From Okamejei kenojei (taxonomy: Eukaryota), in NCBI GenBank assembly GCA_035221665.1, contig CM069171.1:3100001-3164000 (forward strand): a DNA stretch of 64,000 bases. Reading direction: 5' to 3'. Under the pieces are notes generated by a model. That model saw nothing but the letters and a program-made list of their open reading frames with translations, was not told the origin of the DNA and ran no database searches. Below are positions 31,548 to 51,312 of this stretch, in pieces. Made by a program: the position numbers and the translations under genes. Numbering within the stretch: the first letter of the stretch is position 1; each line of letters starts with the position of its first letter.

Positions 31548-32492
31548 CAATAGTGTGGTACTTGAGTACCTAATACATACATACATATTTCCATTCTTGT
31601 ACAACTTCACACTTTTGATTTAATAATAAAAGAACAGCGAGAGAAAAAAGAAATAAAGAGTGTCAGAATAGATAGTCAAGCGAGTAGAAACAGAAAGCAA
31701 AAGAAATAAAGGACAGAGATGAGAAGTTAAAAGATTGAAAGAAAAGGAGACAGTAAAGAAATGATTAGGAGAGATCTACCTATCTCGTATTTTTTGCCCA
31801 TCCATCACCCGGTTCTAAACCATTTAATTTCTAAGATTATGTTATGATGCGCCATATGCTTGTAAAAAGTTGATAAAAGGAGACCAAATCTTTAAGAATA
31901 TGTCTACTTTGCCTAGTAGGAGGAATCTCAATTTCTCCAAGTGCCTGGAGTGGAAGCACTTTGCACCAACGATTATAGAGGAGCTCCTCTAGTATCTTTG
32001 CTTTGCACCTTCCTCCTGTCACAGCACCAGCCACAATAGTGTGGTACTTGAGTACCTAATACATACACACATATATCCATTCTTGTACAACTTCACACTT
32101 TTGATTTAATAATAAAAGAACAGTGAGAGAAAAAATAAATAAAGAGTGTCGGAATAGATAGTCAAGCGAGTAGAAACAGAAAGCAAAAGAAATAAAGGAC
32201 GGAGATGCGAAGTTAAAAGATTGAAAGAAAAGGAGAAAGTAAAGAAAAGAAAGATTAGGAGAGATCTACCCATCTCGTATTTTTTGCCCATCCGTCACCC
32301 GGTTCTAAACCATTTAATTTCTACGGTTATGTTATGTTGCACCATATGCTTATAAAAAGTTGATAAAAGGAGACCAAGTCTTTAAGAGTAGGTGTACTTT
32401 GCCCAGTAGGAGGAATCTGATTTCTCCAAGTGCCTGGAGTGGAAGCACTTTGCTCCTCTAGTATCTTTGCTTTGCACCGTCCCCCTGTCACA
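31548..32492 (-). repeat. Tandem duplication (~486-bp period) of an L1-clade 3' fragment plus flank
   Basis: caatagtgtggtacttgagtacc at 31548 and 32034; minus 31842-31943 encodes HLEKLRFLLLGKVDIFLKIWSPFINFLQAYGAS*, resembling the C-terminus of fish-type L1 ORF2. Confidence 0.8.
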
Positions 32493-32499
32493 GTCACAG

Positions 32500-33000
32500 C
32501 CGCAGCAGACAACCCTCAGCCCCCGGGAGGGGCCTACCCGACCCGCACACTCACCTCGCAAACCGCTTCCATCGAAATCACGCACCGGGCGAAACTTTTG
32601 ACTTCTGCTCGCCGGCGTTGTGCGGTGGCGGTGGCGGTGGCGGCGGCGGCGGCGACGCTCGCACTCTCCCCGTCTCTCTCGTTCTCCCTTTTACCACAGA
32701 GCGAGCGCCTCCTCGCAATGTCACTCCTCCCGCCCTCCCGCCCGCCGCTACCAACTGCCTTTGCCTCGGCCAGCCATGACGGGCGCTGTCGGCCCCCGGA
32801 GCCGGCCGGCCCGCGCCCAGCACGCTGGGAGATGTAGTCCCCGCCCCCCCCTCCATGCGTTGTCGGCCATGCGGCCGCGAACTACATTTCCCGCCAGGGG
32901 GGGTCGTCGCAGCCGGGGCCGGCGGCAAGGACTCGCAAAATGGCGCCCCGACCTGCGTCCGTCGCTCCCGAAGCACGCCGGGAGTTGTGGTTCCCATCTG
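32500..33000. promoter_or_regulatory. CpG-island promoter with ZNF143 and YY1 motifs
   Basis: SBS-type ggactacatctcccagcgtgc (minus, ~32820-32840), actacatttcccgcc (32881), aaccacaactcccggcgtgc (minus, ~32973-32992); YY1-like aaaatggcg (32937). Confidence 0.8.
32555..32830 (-). other. Probable non-coding first exon of a minus-strand gene
   Basis: CpG-rich with (gcc/acc)n tract; strong donor CGAG|GTGAGT at 32555/32554; immediately downstream (minus sense) of ZNF143/YY1 motifs. TSS approximate. Confidence 0.6.
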
Positions 33001-33024
33001 TGAACGACCAATGCACAATCTGAC

Positions 33025-33826
33025 CAGAAGGAAAGTCATCCTTGTCCTAATCTGAGGAAAGTCATCCTTGCCCTGATCTGAGGAAAGTCATCCTTGCCCT
33101 AATCTGAGGAAAGTCATCCTTGCCCTAATCTGAGGAAAGTCATCCTTGCCCTGATCTGAGGAAAGTCATCCTTGCCCTAATCTGAGTAAAGTCATCCTTG
33201 CCCTAATCTGAGGAAAGTCATCCTTGCCCTAATCTGAGGAAGGACATCCTTGCCCTGATCTGAGGAAGGACATCCTTGCCCTGATCTGAGGAAAGACATC
33301 CTTGCCCTAATCTGAGGAAAGACATTCTTGCCCTGATTTGAGGAAAGACATTCTTGCCCTAATTTGAGGAAAGTCATCCTTGCCCTGATATGAGGAAAGT
33401 CATCCTTACCTTAATCTGTGGAAAGTCATCCTTGCCCTAATCTGAGGAAATACATTCTTGCCCTGATCTGAGGAAATACATTCTTGCCCTGATCTGAGGA
33501 AAGTCATCCTTGCCCTAATCTGAGGAAAGTCATCCTTGTCCTAATCTGAGGAAAGACATTCTTGCCCTGATCTGAGGAAAGACATTCTTGCCCTGATCTG
33601 AGGAAAGACATTCTTGCCCTGATCTGAGAAAAGTCATTCTTGCCATGATCTGAGGAAAGTCATCCTTGCCCTAATCTGAGGAAAGACATTCTTGCCCTAA
33701 TCTGAGGAAAGACATTCTTGCCCCAATCTGAGGAAAGACATTCTTGACCTAATCTGAAGAAAGACATTCTTGCCCTAATCTGAGGAAAGGCATTCTTGCC
33801 CTAATCTGAGGAAAGACATTCTTGCC
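33025..33826 (+). repeat. 26-bp minisatellite (~31 copies) derived from CR1 ORF2
   Basis: Unit tctgaggaaag(t/a)cat(c/t)cttgccct(a/g)a; runs directly into CR1 sequence encoding PNLRKDILA.EGVQRRFTRL. Confidence 0.95.
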
Positions 33827-35330: not shown

Positions 35331-37275
35331 TGGGGGAATCCCCGTCTGGGTCACTGTGTGTCCAGGGGGAATCCCCGGCTGTGTGTGCCGATGGATACAG
35401 GGGGGATCACCGGCTGTATTTTCCACTGTGTGTACACTGTGTCTGCGTGTCACTGTGTGTACACTGTGTGGGTCACTGTGTGTCCAGGGGGAATCCCCGG
35501 CTGTATGTTCCACTGTGTGTACACTGTGTCGGTGGGTCACTGTGTGTCCAGGGGGAATCCCCGTCTGCGTGTCTCAGTGTGTACACTGTGTCTGTGGGTC
35601 ACTGTGTGTACAGGGGGAATCCCCGACTGTGGGTCACTGTGTGTCCAGGGGGAATCCCCGTCTGCGTGTCACTGTGTGTACACTGTGTCTGTGGGTCACT
35701 GTGTGTACACTGTGTCTGTGGGTCACTGTGTGTACACTGTGTTGGGTCACTGTGTGTACACTGTGTCTGTGGGTCACTGTGTGTACAGGGGGAAATCCCC
35801 GTCTGCATGTCACTGTGTGTACACTGTGTCTGTGGGTCACTGTGTGTACACTGTGTCTGTGGGTCACTGTGTGTACACTGTGTCTGTGGGTCACTGTGTG
35901 TACAGGGGGAATCCCCGTCTGCATGTCACTGTGTGTACACTGTGTCTGTGGGTCACTGTGTGTACACTGTGTCTGTGGGTCACTGTGTGTACACTGTGTC
36001 TGTGGGTCACTGTGTGTACACTGTGTCTGTGGGTCACTGTGTGTACAGGGGGAATTCCCGTCTGCGTGTCACTGTGCGTACACTGTGTCTATGGGTCACT
36101 GTGTGTACAGGGATAATCCCCGACTGTGTGTGCCGCTGTATACAGGGGGAATCACCGGCTATATTTGCCACTGTGTGTACACTGTGTGGGTCACTGTGTG
36201 TACAGAGGGAATCCCCGACTGTGGGTCACTGTGTGTCCAGGGGGAATCCCCGGCTGTGTGTGCCGATGGATACAGGGGGGATCACCGGCTGTATTTTCCA
36301 CTGTGTGTACACTGTGTCTGCGTGTCACTGTGTGTACACTGTGTGGGTCACTGTGTGTCCAGGGGGAATCCCCGGCTGTGTGTCCCGCTGGATACAGGGG
36401 GAATCACCGGCTCTATTTGCCACTGTGTGTACTCTGTGTCTGTGGGTCACTGTGTGTACAGGGGGAATTCCCGTCTGCGTGTCACTGTGTGCACATGGAT
36501 AATCCCCGACTGTGTGTGCCGCTGTATACAGGGGGAATCACCGGCTGTATTTTCCACTGTGTGTACACTGTGTGGGTCACTGTGTCTGTGGGTCACTGTG
36601 TGTACAGGGGGAATCCCCGTCTGCGTGTCACTGTGTGTACACTCTGTCTGGGTCACTGTGTGTACAGGGGGAATCCCCGACTGTGGGTCACTGTGTGTAC
36701 ACTGTCTGTGAGTCACTGTGTGTACAGGGGGAATCCCCGACTGTGGGTCACTGTGTGTACACTGTGTCTGTGGGTCACTGTGTGTACACTGTGTCTGTGG
36801 GTCACTGTGTGTACAGGGATAATCCCCGACTGTGTGTGCCGCTGTATACGGGGGAATCACCGGCTATATTTGCCACTGTGTGTACACTGTGTGGGTCACT
36901 GTGTGTACAGAGGGAATCCCCGACTGTGGGTCACTGTGTGTACAGGGGGAATCCCCGTCTGTGGGTCACTGTGTGTACACTGTGTCTGTGGGTCACTGTG
37001 TGTACAGGGGGAATCCTCGACTGTGTGTTCCGCTGTATACAGGGGGAATCACCGGCTGTATTTGCCACTGTGTGTACACTGTGTCTGTGGGTCACTGTGT
37101 GTACAGGGGGAATCCCCGACTGTGGTTCACTGTGTGTACAGGGGGAATCCCCGTCTGCATGTCACTGTGTGTACACACTGTGTCTGTGGGTCACTGTGTG
37201 TACAGGGGGAATCACCGACTGTGTGTGCAACTGTACACAGGGGGAATCCCCAGCTGTGTGTACCATTGTGTGCCA
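35330..37275. repeat. Modular minisatellite (cactgtgtgtac / actgtgtctgtgggt / agggggaatccccg)
   Basis: Shuffled short modules with a ~150-bp block repeated at ~35348 and ~36223. Confidence 0.95.
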
Positions 37276-37609: not shown

Positions 37610-38430
37610 TCTACACTGTATACAGGGGGAATCTTGCCAGTGTGTCATTGTTTACACTAGGGGAATCTCCGTCTGTGTGCCACCGTATATGGGGGGGGGA
37701 ATCCTGCATGTGTCTCAGAGTTTACACTGGGGGGAACATCATCTGCGCCTGGGCCAGAGTATACAGGGAATTCCCCGACTGTGTGCCACTGTATACAGGG
37801 GAAATCTTGCCCCTGTCACATTGTTTACACTGGAGGGAACATTGTGTGTGCGCCAGTGTGTACACTGGGGGCAATCTCTATCGGTATGTCAGTATTTACA
37901 CTGGGGGGATCCCTGTGTGTGCACCTGGGTTTACAATGTGGGAAGACCAGCCTTTGTATCAGTGTTTATATTCGGGAAATCCCTGTGTGTGTGAGCTTGG
38001 ATATAGAAGAAGAATCCCTGCAATGGTGCTAGTGTTTTCAGATGGAGAATCCCTGCCGCCTTCTGTGCCAGTGTTTACAGTGAGTAAATCCCTGCATCTG
38101 TGCCAGTGTTTACAGTGAAGGAATCCCTATGTGTGTGCTAGTGTTGAGAGTAGGGGAATCCCTTCATGTGTGTGCTAGTGTGTGCACTAGCACACACATG
38201 TGTGTGTCAGTGTTTTCACTGGGGAAGCCCTGTGTGTGCCAGTGTTTACATGGAGGGGATTCCCTGTGTATGCCAGTGTTTACATGAGGGAGGATTCCCT
38301 GTGTGTGCCAGTGTTTACACTAGGAGAATCCCTGTGTGCCAGTGCTTACCCTGGGAGAATCCGTGTGAGTATGACAGCTTTTACAATGGGAATCTCTGAG
38401 AGTGTGGCACTGCTTATTGCATCAGATCAC
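37610..38430. repeat. Degenerate older extension of the same minisatellite
   Basis: Recurrent gggaatccctgtgtgtgccagtgtttacac variants. Confidence 0.75.
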
Positions 38431-45490: not shown

Positions 45491-46674
45491 AAATCCATCC
45501 AGTGACTTGGCCTCCACTGCCCCCTGTTGGTCTTGCCCAGAGTAGGGGAATCGAGAAGTAGAGGGCATAGGATCAAGGTGATGGGGGGGAAATTTTAGGC
45601 ATTTTGGAGGGATTGAAGGCAATGGGGAGCTGGGACAGAGATTAAAACCTGAGGCAGAGCAGCCGTGATCATATTGAATGGTGGGTTAGGCTTGAGTGCC
45701 GAGTGGCCTACTCATGCACTTGTTTTCTTGTGTTCTTATTGAGTCCAACCAGTCTGAGTGTCCTTCTCTGATGTTCCTGCCAACTTTCCTTGCATATCTT
45801 CAATTGAATTGAATTGGAAGATACAGCATGGAAACAGGCCCTTTGGTCCACTGTCCACACCGACCTTCCATCACCCCTTCACACTAGTTCCACGTCATCC
45901 CACTTTCTCATGCACTCCCTACGCACTAGGGGCAATTTACAGAGGGCCAATTAACCTGCAAACACGCACTTCTTTTGGATGTGGCGGGAAACATGCAAAC
46001 TCCTCACAGCCAGCAACCGAGATCAGGATCCAACCCAGATCTGAGCTGCGAGGAGGCTGCTTTACTAGCTGCGCTACTGTGCGGCACTTAATTTTTGTGT
46101 TGATATTTCTCTATTCAAAGCTCCTGCCATTTTTGCTCATCTAAATGTAAACATATCCTCGTACCAGGTATATCAGCTGCCATCTCTGCAGCCACATCTT
46201 GAGTTGCTGCGCGTTTCCTGCTTTTATTGTTAATGCAATAATGCTTTTGTTTCGCAAATGTCCTATTGTTTCATTTTCAAGTTTAGAATTCTATTCTTCT
46301 CGCCTCTCCAATAAGCCGCAAGTCTGTGTGTACACACGGCAAAACATTGCCAAACGCCCTCTCGCCGTCCACTTCACAACTTTAAAATGCAAATGCTGTG
46401 TTGGAAAGACATTCCAGACCAACCTACATGACGCTGAGGGATTGAAACTTTAAGAATGCTTTTACGGAACGTACAACTGTCAAAACTGAAATTTAATTAA
46501 ACAATACAGGATGTAAGGGCAAAAAAAACAAAAGCAAATGAGGATTTTGTTATTTGCATTATGCAAATAAACTGCAAACACAACAAATATGTCAATTAAC
46601 CAGTTTCCACAGCGAGCCCGCCCTTCACTACGCTCATTGGCTCAAAGCCTGACAATTAAACTGTACTGTCAAAG

Positions 46675-47580
46675 AGAGACACAAAACGCTGGAGTAACTC
46701 AGTGGGATGGGCAGCATCTCTGGAGATGGAATGGGTGACGTTTCGAGTCGAGACCCTTCTTCAGACTGACAGTCAGGGGAGAGGGAGACTAGTGATATGG
46801 ATGGGTAAGGTGTGAAAATGGCAGATCAAAGCAGACGATGTTCATAAAAATGTAGAATGGTTCATTGTTAGCGGGGGGAAGGTGACACCGACGCATGCAA
46901 TCAGAAAAAATAATCAGGAGGACAGTGGAACTAGTCGGAGAACTAGGGTGGGGGAGGGGCCGACTGACTAGTTTCACTGTCCATAGACACAAAATGCTGG
47001 AGTAACTCAGCGGGACAGGCAGCTTCTCTGTAGACAATTGAATGGGTGACAACTTGGGTCGAGACCCTTCCTCAGACTGGAAGAATCTTCTGAGCCTGAA
47101 AAAGGGTCTTGACCCAAAACATCACCCATTCCTTCTCTCCAGAGATGCTGCCTGTCCCGCTGAGTTACTCCAGCATTTAGTATCTATCTTCGGTGTAAAC
47201 CAGCATCTGCAGTTCCTTCCCACACTACTGGTTCCAATGTCCTCCAGATTATTTTTTCTGATTGTCACCTTCCCCCCTGCTAACAATGAACCATTCTACA
47301 TTTCCTTGAGCATTGTCTGCTTTGATCTGTCGTTTTCACACCTTACCCTTCCATATCTCTAGTCTCCTCTCTCTTCTGACTCTCAGCCTGAAGAAGGGTC
47401 TCGACCCAAAACATCACCCATTCCTTCTCTCCAGAGATGCTGCCCGTCCCGCCGAGTTTCCCCGGCATATTTTGTGGACGAGACAACCATTGGAATCTTG
47501 GATAAAAGCTGGAGTAACTCAGCGGGACAGGCAGCATCTCTGGAGAGAAGGAATGGGTGATGTTTCGGGTCCGGGACCCT
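46675..47580. mobile_element. Cluster of direct and inverted Penelope-derived terminal repeats with hammerhead motifs
   Basis: Repeated gacacaaaatgctggagtaactcagcggg..gggtgacgtttcg(a/g)gtcgagacccttcttcag and its reverse complement (e.g. 47388 ctgaagaagggtctcgacccaaaacatc). Confidence 0.8.
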
Positions 47581-48191
47581 CTTTTCATAGACATAGACAT
47601 AGAAAATAGGTGCAGGAGGAGGCCATTCGGCCCTTCAAGCATGCACAGCAATTAATTGTGATCATGGCTGATCATCCCCTATCAATAACCCGTGCCTGCC
47701 TTCTCCCCATATCCCTCGACTCCACCAGCCCCTAGAGCTTTAACTAACTCTCTCTTAAATCCATCCAGTGACTTGGCCTCCACGCTCCATAGATGCTGCT
47801 ACACCCACTGAGTTTCTCCAGCATTTTTGTGTGCCTTCGATTTTCCAGCATCTGCAGTTCCTTCTTAAACACTTGGCCTCCACTGCCCTCTGTGGCAGGG
47901 AATTCCACAAATTCACAACTCTCTGGGTGAAAAAGTGTTTTCTCACCTCAGTCTTAAATGACCTCCCCTTTATTCTAGGATTTCAAACTTGGAATCTTCT
48001 CCACAATTCAGAAAGATCATGGTTGACCCTTTAACGTATGCGAGGACCAGTGATGGCGATTGTACGCCAAGATACAGGTAGAAACTAGGAACTGAGTGCC
48101 GACTGAGTACAGAAATTTGTTCTTCCCGCACGCATTTAAAGCATGGAATAATCTCCATCCTACTATAGTTACCCAACCAGATGGAACTAAA

Positions 48192-48872
48192 TCTGAGGAA
48201 GGGTTTCGGCCCGAAACGTTGCCTATCTCCTTCGCTCCAGTCTGAGGAAGGGTTTTGGCCCGAAACGTTGCCTATCTCCTTCACTCAGGTCTGAGGAAGG
48301 GTTTTGGCCCGAAACGTTGCCTATCTCCTTCGCTCCAGTCTGAGGAAGAGTTTTGGCCTGAAACGTTGCCTATCTCCTTCACTCAGGTCTGAGGAAGGGT
48401 TTTGGCCCGAAACGTTGCCTATCTCCTTCGCTCCAGTCTGAGGAAGAGTTTCGGCCTGAAACGTTGCCTATCTCCTTCACTCAGGTTCTGAGGAAGGGTT
48501 TGGCCCGAAACGTTGCCTATCTCCTTCACTCAGGTCTGAGGAAGGGTTTTGGCCCGAAACGTTGCCTTTCTCCTTCACTCAGGTCTGAGGAAGGGTTTTG
48601 GCCCGAAACGTTGCCTATCTCCTTCACTCAGGTCTGAGGAAGGGTTTTTGGCCCGAAACGTTGCCTATCTCCTCGCTCCGGTCTGAGGAAGAGTTTCGGC
48701 CTGAAACGTTGCCTATCTCCTTCACTCCAGTCTGAGGAAGGGTTTCGGCCCGAAACGTTGCCTATCTCCTTCGCTCCAGTCTGAGGAAGGGTTTCGGCCC
48801 GAAACGTTGCCTATCTCCTTCCCTCCATAGATGCTGCTGCACCCGCTGAGTTTCTCCAACATTTTGTGTATC
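48192..48872 (+). repeat. 13 x 49-bp tandem array of Penelope-type minimal hammerhead motifs
   Basis: Unit tctgaggaagggtttcggcccgaaacgttgcctatctccttc(g/a)ctc(cag/agg); starts 48192, 48241 ... 48780; TSD aactaaat (48185-48192, 48877-48884). Confidence 0.9.
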
Positions 48873-49064
48873 CTGCAACTAAATTTAAGGTAGCTCTTTC
48901 TTCCCAAAAACCCTTTCTGGCTTAAGTCCTCCCTCCACCACCTCCAGTTTAAATTCCTTTTGGAATATTTTGGAGGAGCAAGAAACCAAGACGGTGGTTC
49001 AGAAGACCTACACGAACTAAACCCTGCATGCACAGTGCCAGCCTTCTCAGGTGTTGATTTGGGG

Positions 49065-49400
49065 AAATGCAAGAAGATGCAGGAAGATTGTTCCCGATGT
49101 TGGGGAGGTCCAGAACACGGGGTCACAGTCTAAGGATAAGGGGGAATTCCTTTAGGACAGAGATGAGGAAAACATTTTTCACACAGAGAGTGGTGAGTCT
49201 CTGGGATTCTCTGCCACAGAAGGTAGTTGAGGCCAGTTCATTGGCTATATTTAAGAGGGAGTTAGATGTGGCCCTGTGGTTAAAGGGATCAGGGGGTATG
49301 TAGAGAAGCCAGGTACAGGATACTGAGTTGGATGATCAGCCATGATCATATTGAAGGGCCGAATGGCCTCCTCCTGCACCTATTTTCTATGTTTCTATGT
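49065..49400 (+). mobile_element. 5'-truncated CR1 3' fragment flanked by a 164-bp direct duplication
   Basis: DAGRLFPMLGRSRTRGHSL..; flanks 48901-49064 and 49401-49564 are near-identical. Confidence 0.9.
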
Positions 49401-49569
49401 TTCCCAAAAACCCTTTCTGGCTTAAGTCCTCCCTCCACCACCTCCAGTTTAAATTCCATTTGGAATATTTTGGAGGAGCAAGAAACCAAGACGGTGGTTC
49501 AGAAAGCCTACACGAACTAAAACCTGCATGCACAGTGCCAGCCTTCTCAGGGTTGATTTGGGGGGACGT

Positions 49570-49870
49570 TGCATGTCACAACGTTGCTGCTGCTTGCTGC
49601 TGCTGCTGCTTTGACCTGGCGCTGGGCAGCTGATGAGGCGCGCGGCACCCTGGGAGTTGTAGTCCTCCTGCTGCTCGGCGCCAGCGTCGGACCAGGGTTG
49701 GGAACTACAGCCCCCGGCAGCCTCCGCGCGGCCCGGGCTCCCATGTAACAGCTGAGAGCCCCGGGGCGCTGTGACAAGCCGCAGCCGGAACGGTGCGAGT
49801 GAGTGAGTGAGCCCTTGTTTATTCCAACGCGGAAGTAGTGACCTTTTAAATTCATTTTCTGCAGGTTGCA
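49570..49870 (+). promoter_or_regulatory. CpG-island promoter / 5'UTR of the MLK gene
   Basis: ZNF143 motifs ggactacaactcccagggtgcc (minus, ~49644-49665) and actacagcccccggcag (49704); ETS cggaagt (~49830); acceptor ttcattttctgcag at 49864. Confidence 0.75.
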
Positions 49871-50016
49871 CGGGACATGTTTCTGTCGGAATCGATGCAA
49901 TGCAGAGGAATAGAAGAGATGGCAGCAAAATAAGACCCCATATGCGGGGGGAAGGGTTGCAGGGCTCCTTAAAGCCGGAGACGGGGCGAGACGCAGAAAC
50001 AGAAACCTTTCATTAA

Positions 50017-50817
<801 letters not shown>

Positions 50818-50884
50818 TAGTTCCAATGAAAAATAGGTGCATCAATAGGCCATTCGGCCCTTTGAGCCAGCACTGCCATTCATG

Positions 50885-51312
50885 ACAAGAGCCCCAGTGA
50901 GACCACACCTGGAGTATTGTGTGCAGTTTTGCCCCCCTAATTTGAGGAAGGACATTCTTGCTATTGAGGGAGTGCAGCGTGGGTTTACAAGGTTAATTCC
51001 CAGGATGGCGGGACTGTCATATGCTGAGAGAATGGAGCAGCTGGGCTTGTACACTCTGGAGTTTAGGACACTCTGATGAGAGTGGGATGTTAATCACAAC
51101 ACTAGAGGCAGGAAACGTGTTCCCAATGTTGGGGGAGTCCAGAACCAGGGGCCACAGTTTAAGAATAAGGAGTAAGCCATTTAGAACGGTGATGAGGAAA
51201 CACAGTTTTTCTCACAGAGAGTGGTGAGTCTGTGGAATTCTCTTGCCTCAGAGGGCGGTGGAGGCTGGTTTCTCTGGATGTTTTCACGAGAGAGCTAGAT
51301 AGGGCTCTTAAA
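50885..51312 (+). mobile_element. CR1/HER1-type LINE fragment in intron 1
   Basis: VRPHLEYCVQFCPPNLRKDILAIEGVQ..EAGNVFPMLGESRTRGHSL. Confidence 0.85.

Follow-up and report, generated by a model that had tools for sequence, protein, structure and literature searches.

An array of 13 hammerhead motifs in Okamejei kenojei: probably a neutral minisatellite derived from a Penelope-like element

Background

The closest described counterparts of the repeat array considered here are the minimal hammerhead ribozymes of Penelope-like elements (PLEs) and the retrozymes, small retroelements built of tandem hammerhead-bearing units. What the hammerheads of Penelope elements do is called unclear in the relevant part of a paper that also lists 5' truncation, an optional tail of 30-40 nt, and tandem or inverted arrangements as features of PLE insertions (PMC8557442). 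Stem I of the PLE minimal hammerheads comprises 4-5 bp, with an atypical motif of D. virilis at 2 bp (PMC4209133), and GUU appears among the active cleavage sites in a list that, in the part pertinent here, gives no rates (PMC3138052). A recent preprint, as far as its main text goes, proposes the same route from a pLTR to a local tandem repeat that is favored below, and describes cleavage for one of nine elements (bioRxiv 10.64898/2026.07.22.740005). A literature search on Penelope minisatellites of chondrichthyans found no paper. How does an array of such motifs in Okamejei kenojei compare with these systems?

Structure of the array

In the window, by which we mean the whole analysed stretch of 64,000 nt, TRF delimits a repeat at 48192-48826 with a period of 49, 13.0 copies and 92% matches, in agreement with the 13-unit, 49-nt-period array of hammerheads described in the earlier note. 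The element order CUGAGGA-A-stem II-GAAAC-GUU-GCCU is maintained in 13/13 units, and the hammerhead core that had been claimed for each unit (CUGAGGA, the unpaired A, GAAAC and GUU) is indeed present in all of them; it conforms to the CUGANGA and GAAA pattern, followed by an NUH triplet, that characterizes PLE minimal hammerheads. Ten of the 13 units have an intact stem II with the G10.1-C11.1 pair and, 5' of that pair, the unpaired base; the remaining ones, units 4, 6 and 11, have lost it and are the three copies in which damage had been recognized. The loop of stem II had been given as UUCG, with UUUG in some copies; the latter holds (six units), but UUCG is found in only 5 of 13, with UUG and UUUUG in one unit each. 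Pairing of stem I, proposed for one linker variant, can reach 4 bp in five units (3, 5, 8, 9 and 10) and 1-3 bp in the other eight. An Rfam scan of positions 46000-51000 up to E=1 returned four unrelated matches and no hammerhead family.

The block is bounded by a TSD and interrupts a LINE remnant, as had been noticed; 9/9 other copies of the host LINE run uninterrupted through the insertion site with a single target, from which the TSD follows as 11 bp (one mismatch) and not the 8 bp originally given. Nor does the block consist of repeats alone: at 48827-48873, unit 13 is continued by the 3' tail that is normal for the parent element. Further along the LINE, a 164-nt direct duplication of its tail (48901-49064, 49401-49563) encloses ~340 nt from a different repeat; this arrangement immediately precedes the kinase promoter. 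The window contains five more single hammerhead-bearing Penelope ends (3350, 38810, 46737, 58422 and 60396), along with more diverged and inverted Penelope ends at 47.0-47.6 kb. It also harbors large minisatellites at 33029-33826, 35441-37272 and 38064-38367 (26-nt x 31; 35/62-nt families); by eye, the 26-nt unit includes CUGAGGA without a hammerhead stem.

Features of the array, its surroundings and the related junction clusters (window coordinates, except for the last row)
Feature	Position	Strand	Remarks
Interrupted LINE remnant, left part (ORF end)	48104..48192	+	40 matches scored, ~90% identity
Left TSD	48182..48192	+	11 bp, 1 mismatch vs right copy; target once in 9/9 host-LINE copies
12 full head-to-tail units, 48-50 nt, hammerhead-bearing Penelope-like end	48193..48780	+	Per unit: CUGAGGA core, stem II, GAAAC, GUU cleavage triplet, linker
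Unit 13 and normal 3' tail	48781..48873	+	Stop at the first of the family's two usual 3' end points; at most 89/90 nt identical to dispersed monomer
Right TSD	48874..48884	+	Comparison with host-LINE copies
Interrupted LINE remnant, right part	48885..49064	+	Stretch 48901-49064 duplicated at 49401-49563
CpG-rich promoter and first-exon region of kinase gene	49501..50550	.	Predicted; CpG content
First coding exon, MLK-family kinase (SH3 and kinase N-terminal part)	50086..50820	+	Domain matches
Junction clusters (G000)	C22:2.59-6.28, C25:39.06-40.52, C17:1.84-3.07, C16:55.04-56.07, C38:16.09-16.81 Mb		Loci L076, L078, L129-L145, L149-L167

The parent element and the 5' ends of its copies

Comparison with the rest of the genome shows the array unit to be the terminal repeat of a Penelope-like element. 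At four loci (L123, L124, L125 and L127), the hammerhead of this subfamily directly follows an ORF end and a pyrimidine-rich UTR, and pieces of ORFs upstream of family hammerheads match RVT_1 (PF00078; E 5e-6, 4e-7) and GIY-YIG (PF01541; E 6e-4). The Atlas neighbours are HTH_animal/GIY-YIG/RVT_1 clusters (score 0.96). The initial attribution to minimal hammerheads of the Penelope type is supported.

The family is abundant. An unbiased sample of 40 loci of 10 kb each (400 kb, from two fixed positions on each of the 20 largest contigs) contained 70 cores, against none in the reversed 400-kb control; this amounts to ~175 cores per Mb, or one per ~6 kb, and extrapolates to ~5x10^5 copies in the 2.76-Gb genome. 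The characteristic features of PLE insertions, namely 5' truncation, the optional 30-40-nt tail, and tandem and inverted arrangements, are all present in the family, and in the unbiased sample 27 of 90 motifs have an inverted partner. In dispersed monomers from 11 loci, most of them chosen for likeness, 83-89 of 89-90 nt are identical to unit 13 with its tail. The insertion diverges by 1-3% from its closest dispersed copies, and this near identity indicates that it is young.

Among 93 tail-anchored copies from the unbiased sample, 24 start at -5..0 from the core, 13 include upstream UTR, 6 start near the cleavage site and 50 are spread. Hammerhead-cut templates have to be rejected as the main source of insertions since only 6/93 copies start near the cut site, and the copied RNA thus seems to be usually uncut. 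Copying apparently often stops just ahead of the hammerhead core. With start points so frequently 0-5 nt ahead of the core, a complete core is the default in truncated copies and in duplicates of them; judged from these ends, the intact core in every unit of the array is a by-product of where family copies start.

The same point recurs in duplications. A genome-wide pattern search for exact head-to-tail junctions of this subfamily recovered 92 (control 0), 10 belonging to the array and 82 to other loci, and the periods are 40-52 nt; the GUC subfamilies yielded 198 exact direct junctions, 100 of them listed (control 0). These patterns were anchored at the point before the core and select re-entry there, so that they demonstrate recurrence, not exclusivity. 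In 25 of 59 junction events (neighbours collapsed), the parental C four bases before the core is replaced by G, which in 20 of the 25 (20/59 events) is not templated downstream. A cap can be copied as G, and the site just before the core presumably resembles an initiator. In our reading, the untemplated G may reflect run-off of the reverse transcriptase at the capped end of the RNA, followed by re-priming; a literature search on cap-derived G found no paper. A rival reading of the 5' stop and the G invokes a splice acceptor at the point before the core, such as is described for D. virilis in the part of PMC4209133 concerned. The abrupt 5' end point directly ahead of the core, in many cases accompanied by an untemplated G, is relevant to the movement of Penelope elements and to the role of their hammerheads.

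Predicted folding and cleavage

Could the array cleave itself? The earlier note had proposed that adjacent units dimerize in cis and cut read-through RNA ahead of the kinase gene, which the predictions do not support. The best cis double hammerhead reaches -13.7 kcal/mol compared to an MFE of about -35 to -36, and in 12/12 adjacent pairs it lies at least 21 kcal/mol above the MFE. The multiloop penalty makes part of such gaps, so junctions were compared like with like. A single hammerhead across an array junction, of type III topology with a 5-bp stem III, is predicted to cost 11.7-22.2 kcal/mol; under the same folding treatment, 22 junctions from other loci cost 1.7-12.3 kcal/mol. Among eight junctions with a 44-nt period and a 5-bp stem I, the best natural type, six cost 1.7-3.8 kcal/mol and the others 5.2 and 7.3. 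The penalty in the array comes from the linker, a near inverted repeat of the next core: the junctions are quasi-palindromes in which the core should, by prediction, be buried, and the mean pairing probability of the core is 0.65-1.0 in the fold of the whole array.

Individual units have a motif MFE of -5.5 to -10.2 kcal/mol, and the best of them, 5/13, fold as stems I+II when cut out as 38-mers, which counts against a purely neutral origin. So does the commonest linker variant, which lengthens stem I from 2 to 4 bp. Selection for stem I is nevertheless not needed to account for this variant because the change improves the quasi-palindrome at the junction and leaves the competing helix dominant. 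Quasi-palindromes undergo templated correction, and GUU is a weaker cleavage triplet than GUC. On these predictions, the array is probably inert, with the reservation that nearest-neighbour models ignore tertiary contacts, Mg2+ and protein, and that a PLE hammerhead is protein-assisted in vitro according to the part of PMC11167929 concerned.

Growth of the array

Taken together, the observations are best accommodated by a neutral, PLE-derived minisatellite: a 5'-truncated Penelope-like insertion, the front end of which was duplicated head-to-tail and then grew in DNA, is the explanation that we consider probable. The unit derives from the terminal repeat of the element, and a truncated copy starting 0-5 nt before the core keeps that core whole, as the family comparison shows. 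The reverse transcriptase would then run off at this start point, probably the 5' end of the RNA, and either re-prime 40-52 nt downstream or snap back, giving direct or inverted duplications; the 49-nt junction fits a 3-nt microhomology. After insertion and CpG decay, the dimer would have expanded via slippage or unequal exchange, as the variants common to several units suggest. In the array transcript, the linker would pair with the next core such that cleavage is predicted to be weak or absent, and the array would be a passenger beside the kinase promoter.

Three of the four CpGs have decayed, with changes common to 8, 7 and 3 units; units 4, 6 and 11 each have both stem II lesions; and an alternation across units 2-6 forms a 98-nt higher-order repeat. 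These shared CpG variants, linked lesions and higher-order structure point to expansion at the DNA level, in methylated DNA, after insertion. Furthermore, a second array of the family (L073, C536:169033-169484; 12 x 41 nt), which shows a similar alternation, has CUGA broken in 12/12 units, indicating that expansion needs no ribozyme; neutral expansion, originally mentioned as a fallback, is supported. The genome search for similar arrays that had been suggested also recovered shorter ones (L074, L146) and the 49-nt period at L008, L009 and L014, the present array being the longest with intact cores among those seen in searches that were not exhaustive. Two further observations weigh against a neutral minisatellite. 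Direct duplications are rare (0/90 motifs in the unbiased sample), and all 13 units retain the core and the CpG of stem III. Only 1 of ~8 substitution events in the array falls at a conserved position, but the test for selection acting on the core of the units does not reach significance (P=0.21).

Alternative explanations

Several other scenarios have to be weighed. The whole array could have arisen in one insertion event through repeated jumps of the reverse transcriptase on one RNA, which would suit the single pair of TSDs that brackets all 13 units, the two junction types within the array, and the trimers and tetramers with mixed junctions elsewhere; however, independent jumps elsewhere give many periods (40-52) whereas all 12 array junctions are in one register, and the variants are mostly CpG transitions distributed as a mosaic among units, so we regard this scenario as very unlikely. 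Inflation of the unit number by an assembly error is hinted at by homopolymer indels in units 6, 7 and 10, but the 12 full units comprise 9 distinct sequences in an ordered pattern, and the chance of such an error seems minimal. Presence in other samples was examined by comparing reads with 48732-50400 (4 of 24 runs); the signal is drowned by repeats, and the junction between tail and LINE is spanned by none of the listed pieces. The X5 reads give a single-copy contig over 49432-50400 with 16 differences and leave 49012-49067 almost uncovered, a gap that proves nothing. Another alternative is an active mini-retrozyme, in which the array RNA would cleave itself, perhaps with PLE protein, into 49-nt monomers able to circularize and be reverse-transcribed, the array having arisen or been kept in this way. 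The intact cores in all units, the five units with 4 bp in both stems I and II, the 5-bp stem III possible across each junction, the demonstrable re-copying of the family's dimer junctions to new sites, and the circles made by known retrozymes (described in the pertinent part of PMC7229834) all speak for it. Against it, the block terminates as an ordinary truncated PLE copy does, and not as a cut circle would; neither the CpG variants common to several units nor the higher-order repeat is compatible with a single rolling-circle round; and the predicted folding penalty is 11.7-22.2 kcal/mol. Exact-match searches for the array's junctions found no progeny at new loci, and none of these junctions elsewhere on its contig, the two other matches belonging to another subfamily. 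Known activities are discouraging as well: poor cleavage, also of dimers and trimers, is described for the minimal PLE hammerheads in the part of PMC4209133 concerned, and cleavage was seen in one of nine frog retrozyme dimers in the main text of the preprint (bioRxiv 10.64898/2026.07.22.740005). All told, we consider the mini-retrozyme quite unlikely.

The remaining alternative concerns the neighbouring gene. The kinase gene lies 1.2 kb downstream of the array, with its first in-frame ATG at 50086, and encodes SH3 and kinase domains of the MLK family; the position upstream of such a gene stands, but MAP3K10 is only a candidate for its identity, given that in a similarity ranking the kinase part matches MAP3K9 best and the SH3 domain marginally favors MAP3K10, by 1.5 bits. 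An upstream CpG island at 32401-33150 contains an apparent first exon on the minus strand, with a splice donor near 32555 (by eye), of a gene divergent from the kinase gene. Might the array have been co-opted to act in cis, cutting read-through RNA and shielding or tuning the kinase promoter? It is on the same strand as the kinase gene and 0.63 kb from the CpG-rich region, but at ~175 cores per Mb such closeness is expected by chance, and with a core every ~6 kb proximity to the kinase is uninformative. Moreover, the insertion is young; the next upstream promoter appears to point away; an mRNA started at the kinase promoter would exclude the array; and antisense transcription upstream would run through the inactive strand. 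A scan of 19 ORFs besides the kinase exon (of 75), in which short exons would be missed, found no plus-strand host gene upstream and a single match, to a LINE RT. Given also the predicted cost of cis cutting and the equally successful growth of the family array with dead cores, the cutting proposal is not supported: we deem the array unlikely to act as an RNA-cutting switch for the kinase gene and assign co-option a very low probability.

Clustered composites marked by junctions

A different pattern emerges from the junctions that did multiply. One 44-nt junction is present at 13 loci, 12 of which have unrelated flanks and several their own TSD; seven lie on C22 within 3.7 Mb, five on C25 within 1.5 Mb and one on a small contig. 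For 11 of the 13 loci, the median nearest-neighbour distance is 0.19 Mb compared with 92 Mb under uniform placement (0/20000 simulations), a null that ignores density variation and was applied to a cluster chosen after the fact. Similar clusters occur on C17 (10/10 with unrelated flanks), C16 (9/9) and C38 (6). The clustered loci are short palindromic composites of Penelope ends in which the cut in the upstream unit and the inversion point vary, as expected if RNA of a duplicated locus is copied repeatedly and inserted nearby. Segmental duplication is rejected for all but one pair (L131/L133) among the 38 loci compared. The clusters would reflect local hopping or, alternatively, local gene conversion; no paper on local hopping of Penelope-like elements was apparent, to judge from a listing.

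Does folding have anything to do with this multiplication? As isolated 54-mers, the 44-nt junctions of seven loci (L131, L133, L138, L130, L137, L129 and L076) are predicted to form a compact hammerhead of type III topology, with stems of 5/3-4/5 bp, within 1.7-3.8 kcal/mol of the ensemble; in most genomic contexts, it is masked by an inverted arm. The idea that junctions multiply because they fold well is not supported, since poorly folding junctions cluster too (C38). One could still envisage the genome as a nursery of mini-retrozymes, where two weak type I motifs, brought together by head-to-tail duplication, make up a single compact hammerhead with type III topology (54-59 nt) and the composites, re-copied by the Penelope machinery, land within a few Mb of their source. 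In this picture, activity would be exemplified by the 44-nt junction family, and the 49-nt array would be a member that had expanded and that releases 49-nt monomers once protein opens the competing helix; this is a speculative proposal, and we consider it rather unlikely. The clustering of junction-marked lineages at the megabase scale bears on Penelope movement and on the function of the hammerheads, and it is this clustering, rather than the array, that is a lead worth following; the junction variants that occur naturally, ~10 kcal/mol apart in predicted folding, offer a cheap test set.

Comparison with known systems

Among the described systems, the minimal type I hammerheads of metazoan PLE pLTRs (Cervera & De la Pena 2014, PMC4209133) are the closest in kind. 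In the part of that work bearing on motif structure, they share with the array unit the core, the unpaired base between 9 and 10.1, G10.1-C11.1, the palindromic 15.2-16.2 and a short stem I; they likewise reside mostly in truncated copies, and dimeric action is predicted for them. They differ in spacing, the motif recurring every 49 nt here compared with every ~3 kb there, and in that stem II is only 4 bp and the parental stem I 2 bp in the present case. The Poseidon element of Anolis, as covered in the part of PMC11167929 concerned, similarly has two 3' end points (tail) ~35 nt apart, and uncut RNA is its usual template, as the tally of 5' ends suggests for the element studied here.

With regard to the retrozymes, the array has the features that define the non-LTR type operationally, that is, a TRF repeat, at least two consecutive complete hammerheads and a motif MFE below -5 kcal/mol, as judged by TRF, core pattern and MFE (the preprint's own screen is an rnabob descriptor). 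Like the non-LTR retrozymes in the main text of the preprint (bioRxiv 10.64898/2026.07.22.740005), it carries hammerheads in consecutive tandem units, derives from a pLTR, is intergenic and was locally amplified. The differences are that its unit is 49 nt compared with 51-972 bp (mean 363 in their one chondrichthyan), that it has 13 units whereas 75% of their families have a maximum of 7, and that it is a single locus with no progeny seen in exact-match searches. The unit is thus 2 nt below the shortest family in the main text of the preprint, the supplements of which may list such units. Classical animal retrozymes, in the part of PMC7229834 concerned, also contain tandem type I hammerheads, with dimeric cleavage in the axolotl case, but have units of 150-450 nt, canonical hammerheads with loop-loop contacts in corals, and demonstrated RNA, whereas the array is known from DNA sequence. 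The significance of the array itself is little; it is a worked example of the conversion of a Penelope end into a repeat resembling a retrozyme, at the lower limit of the lengths known.
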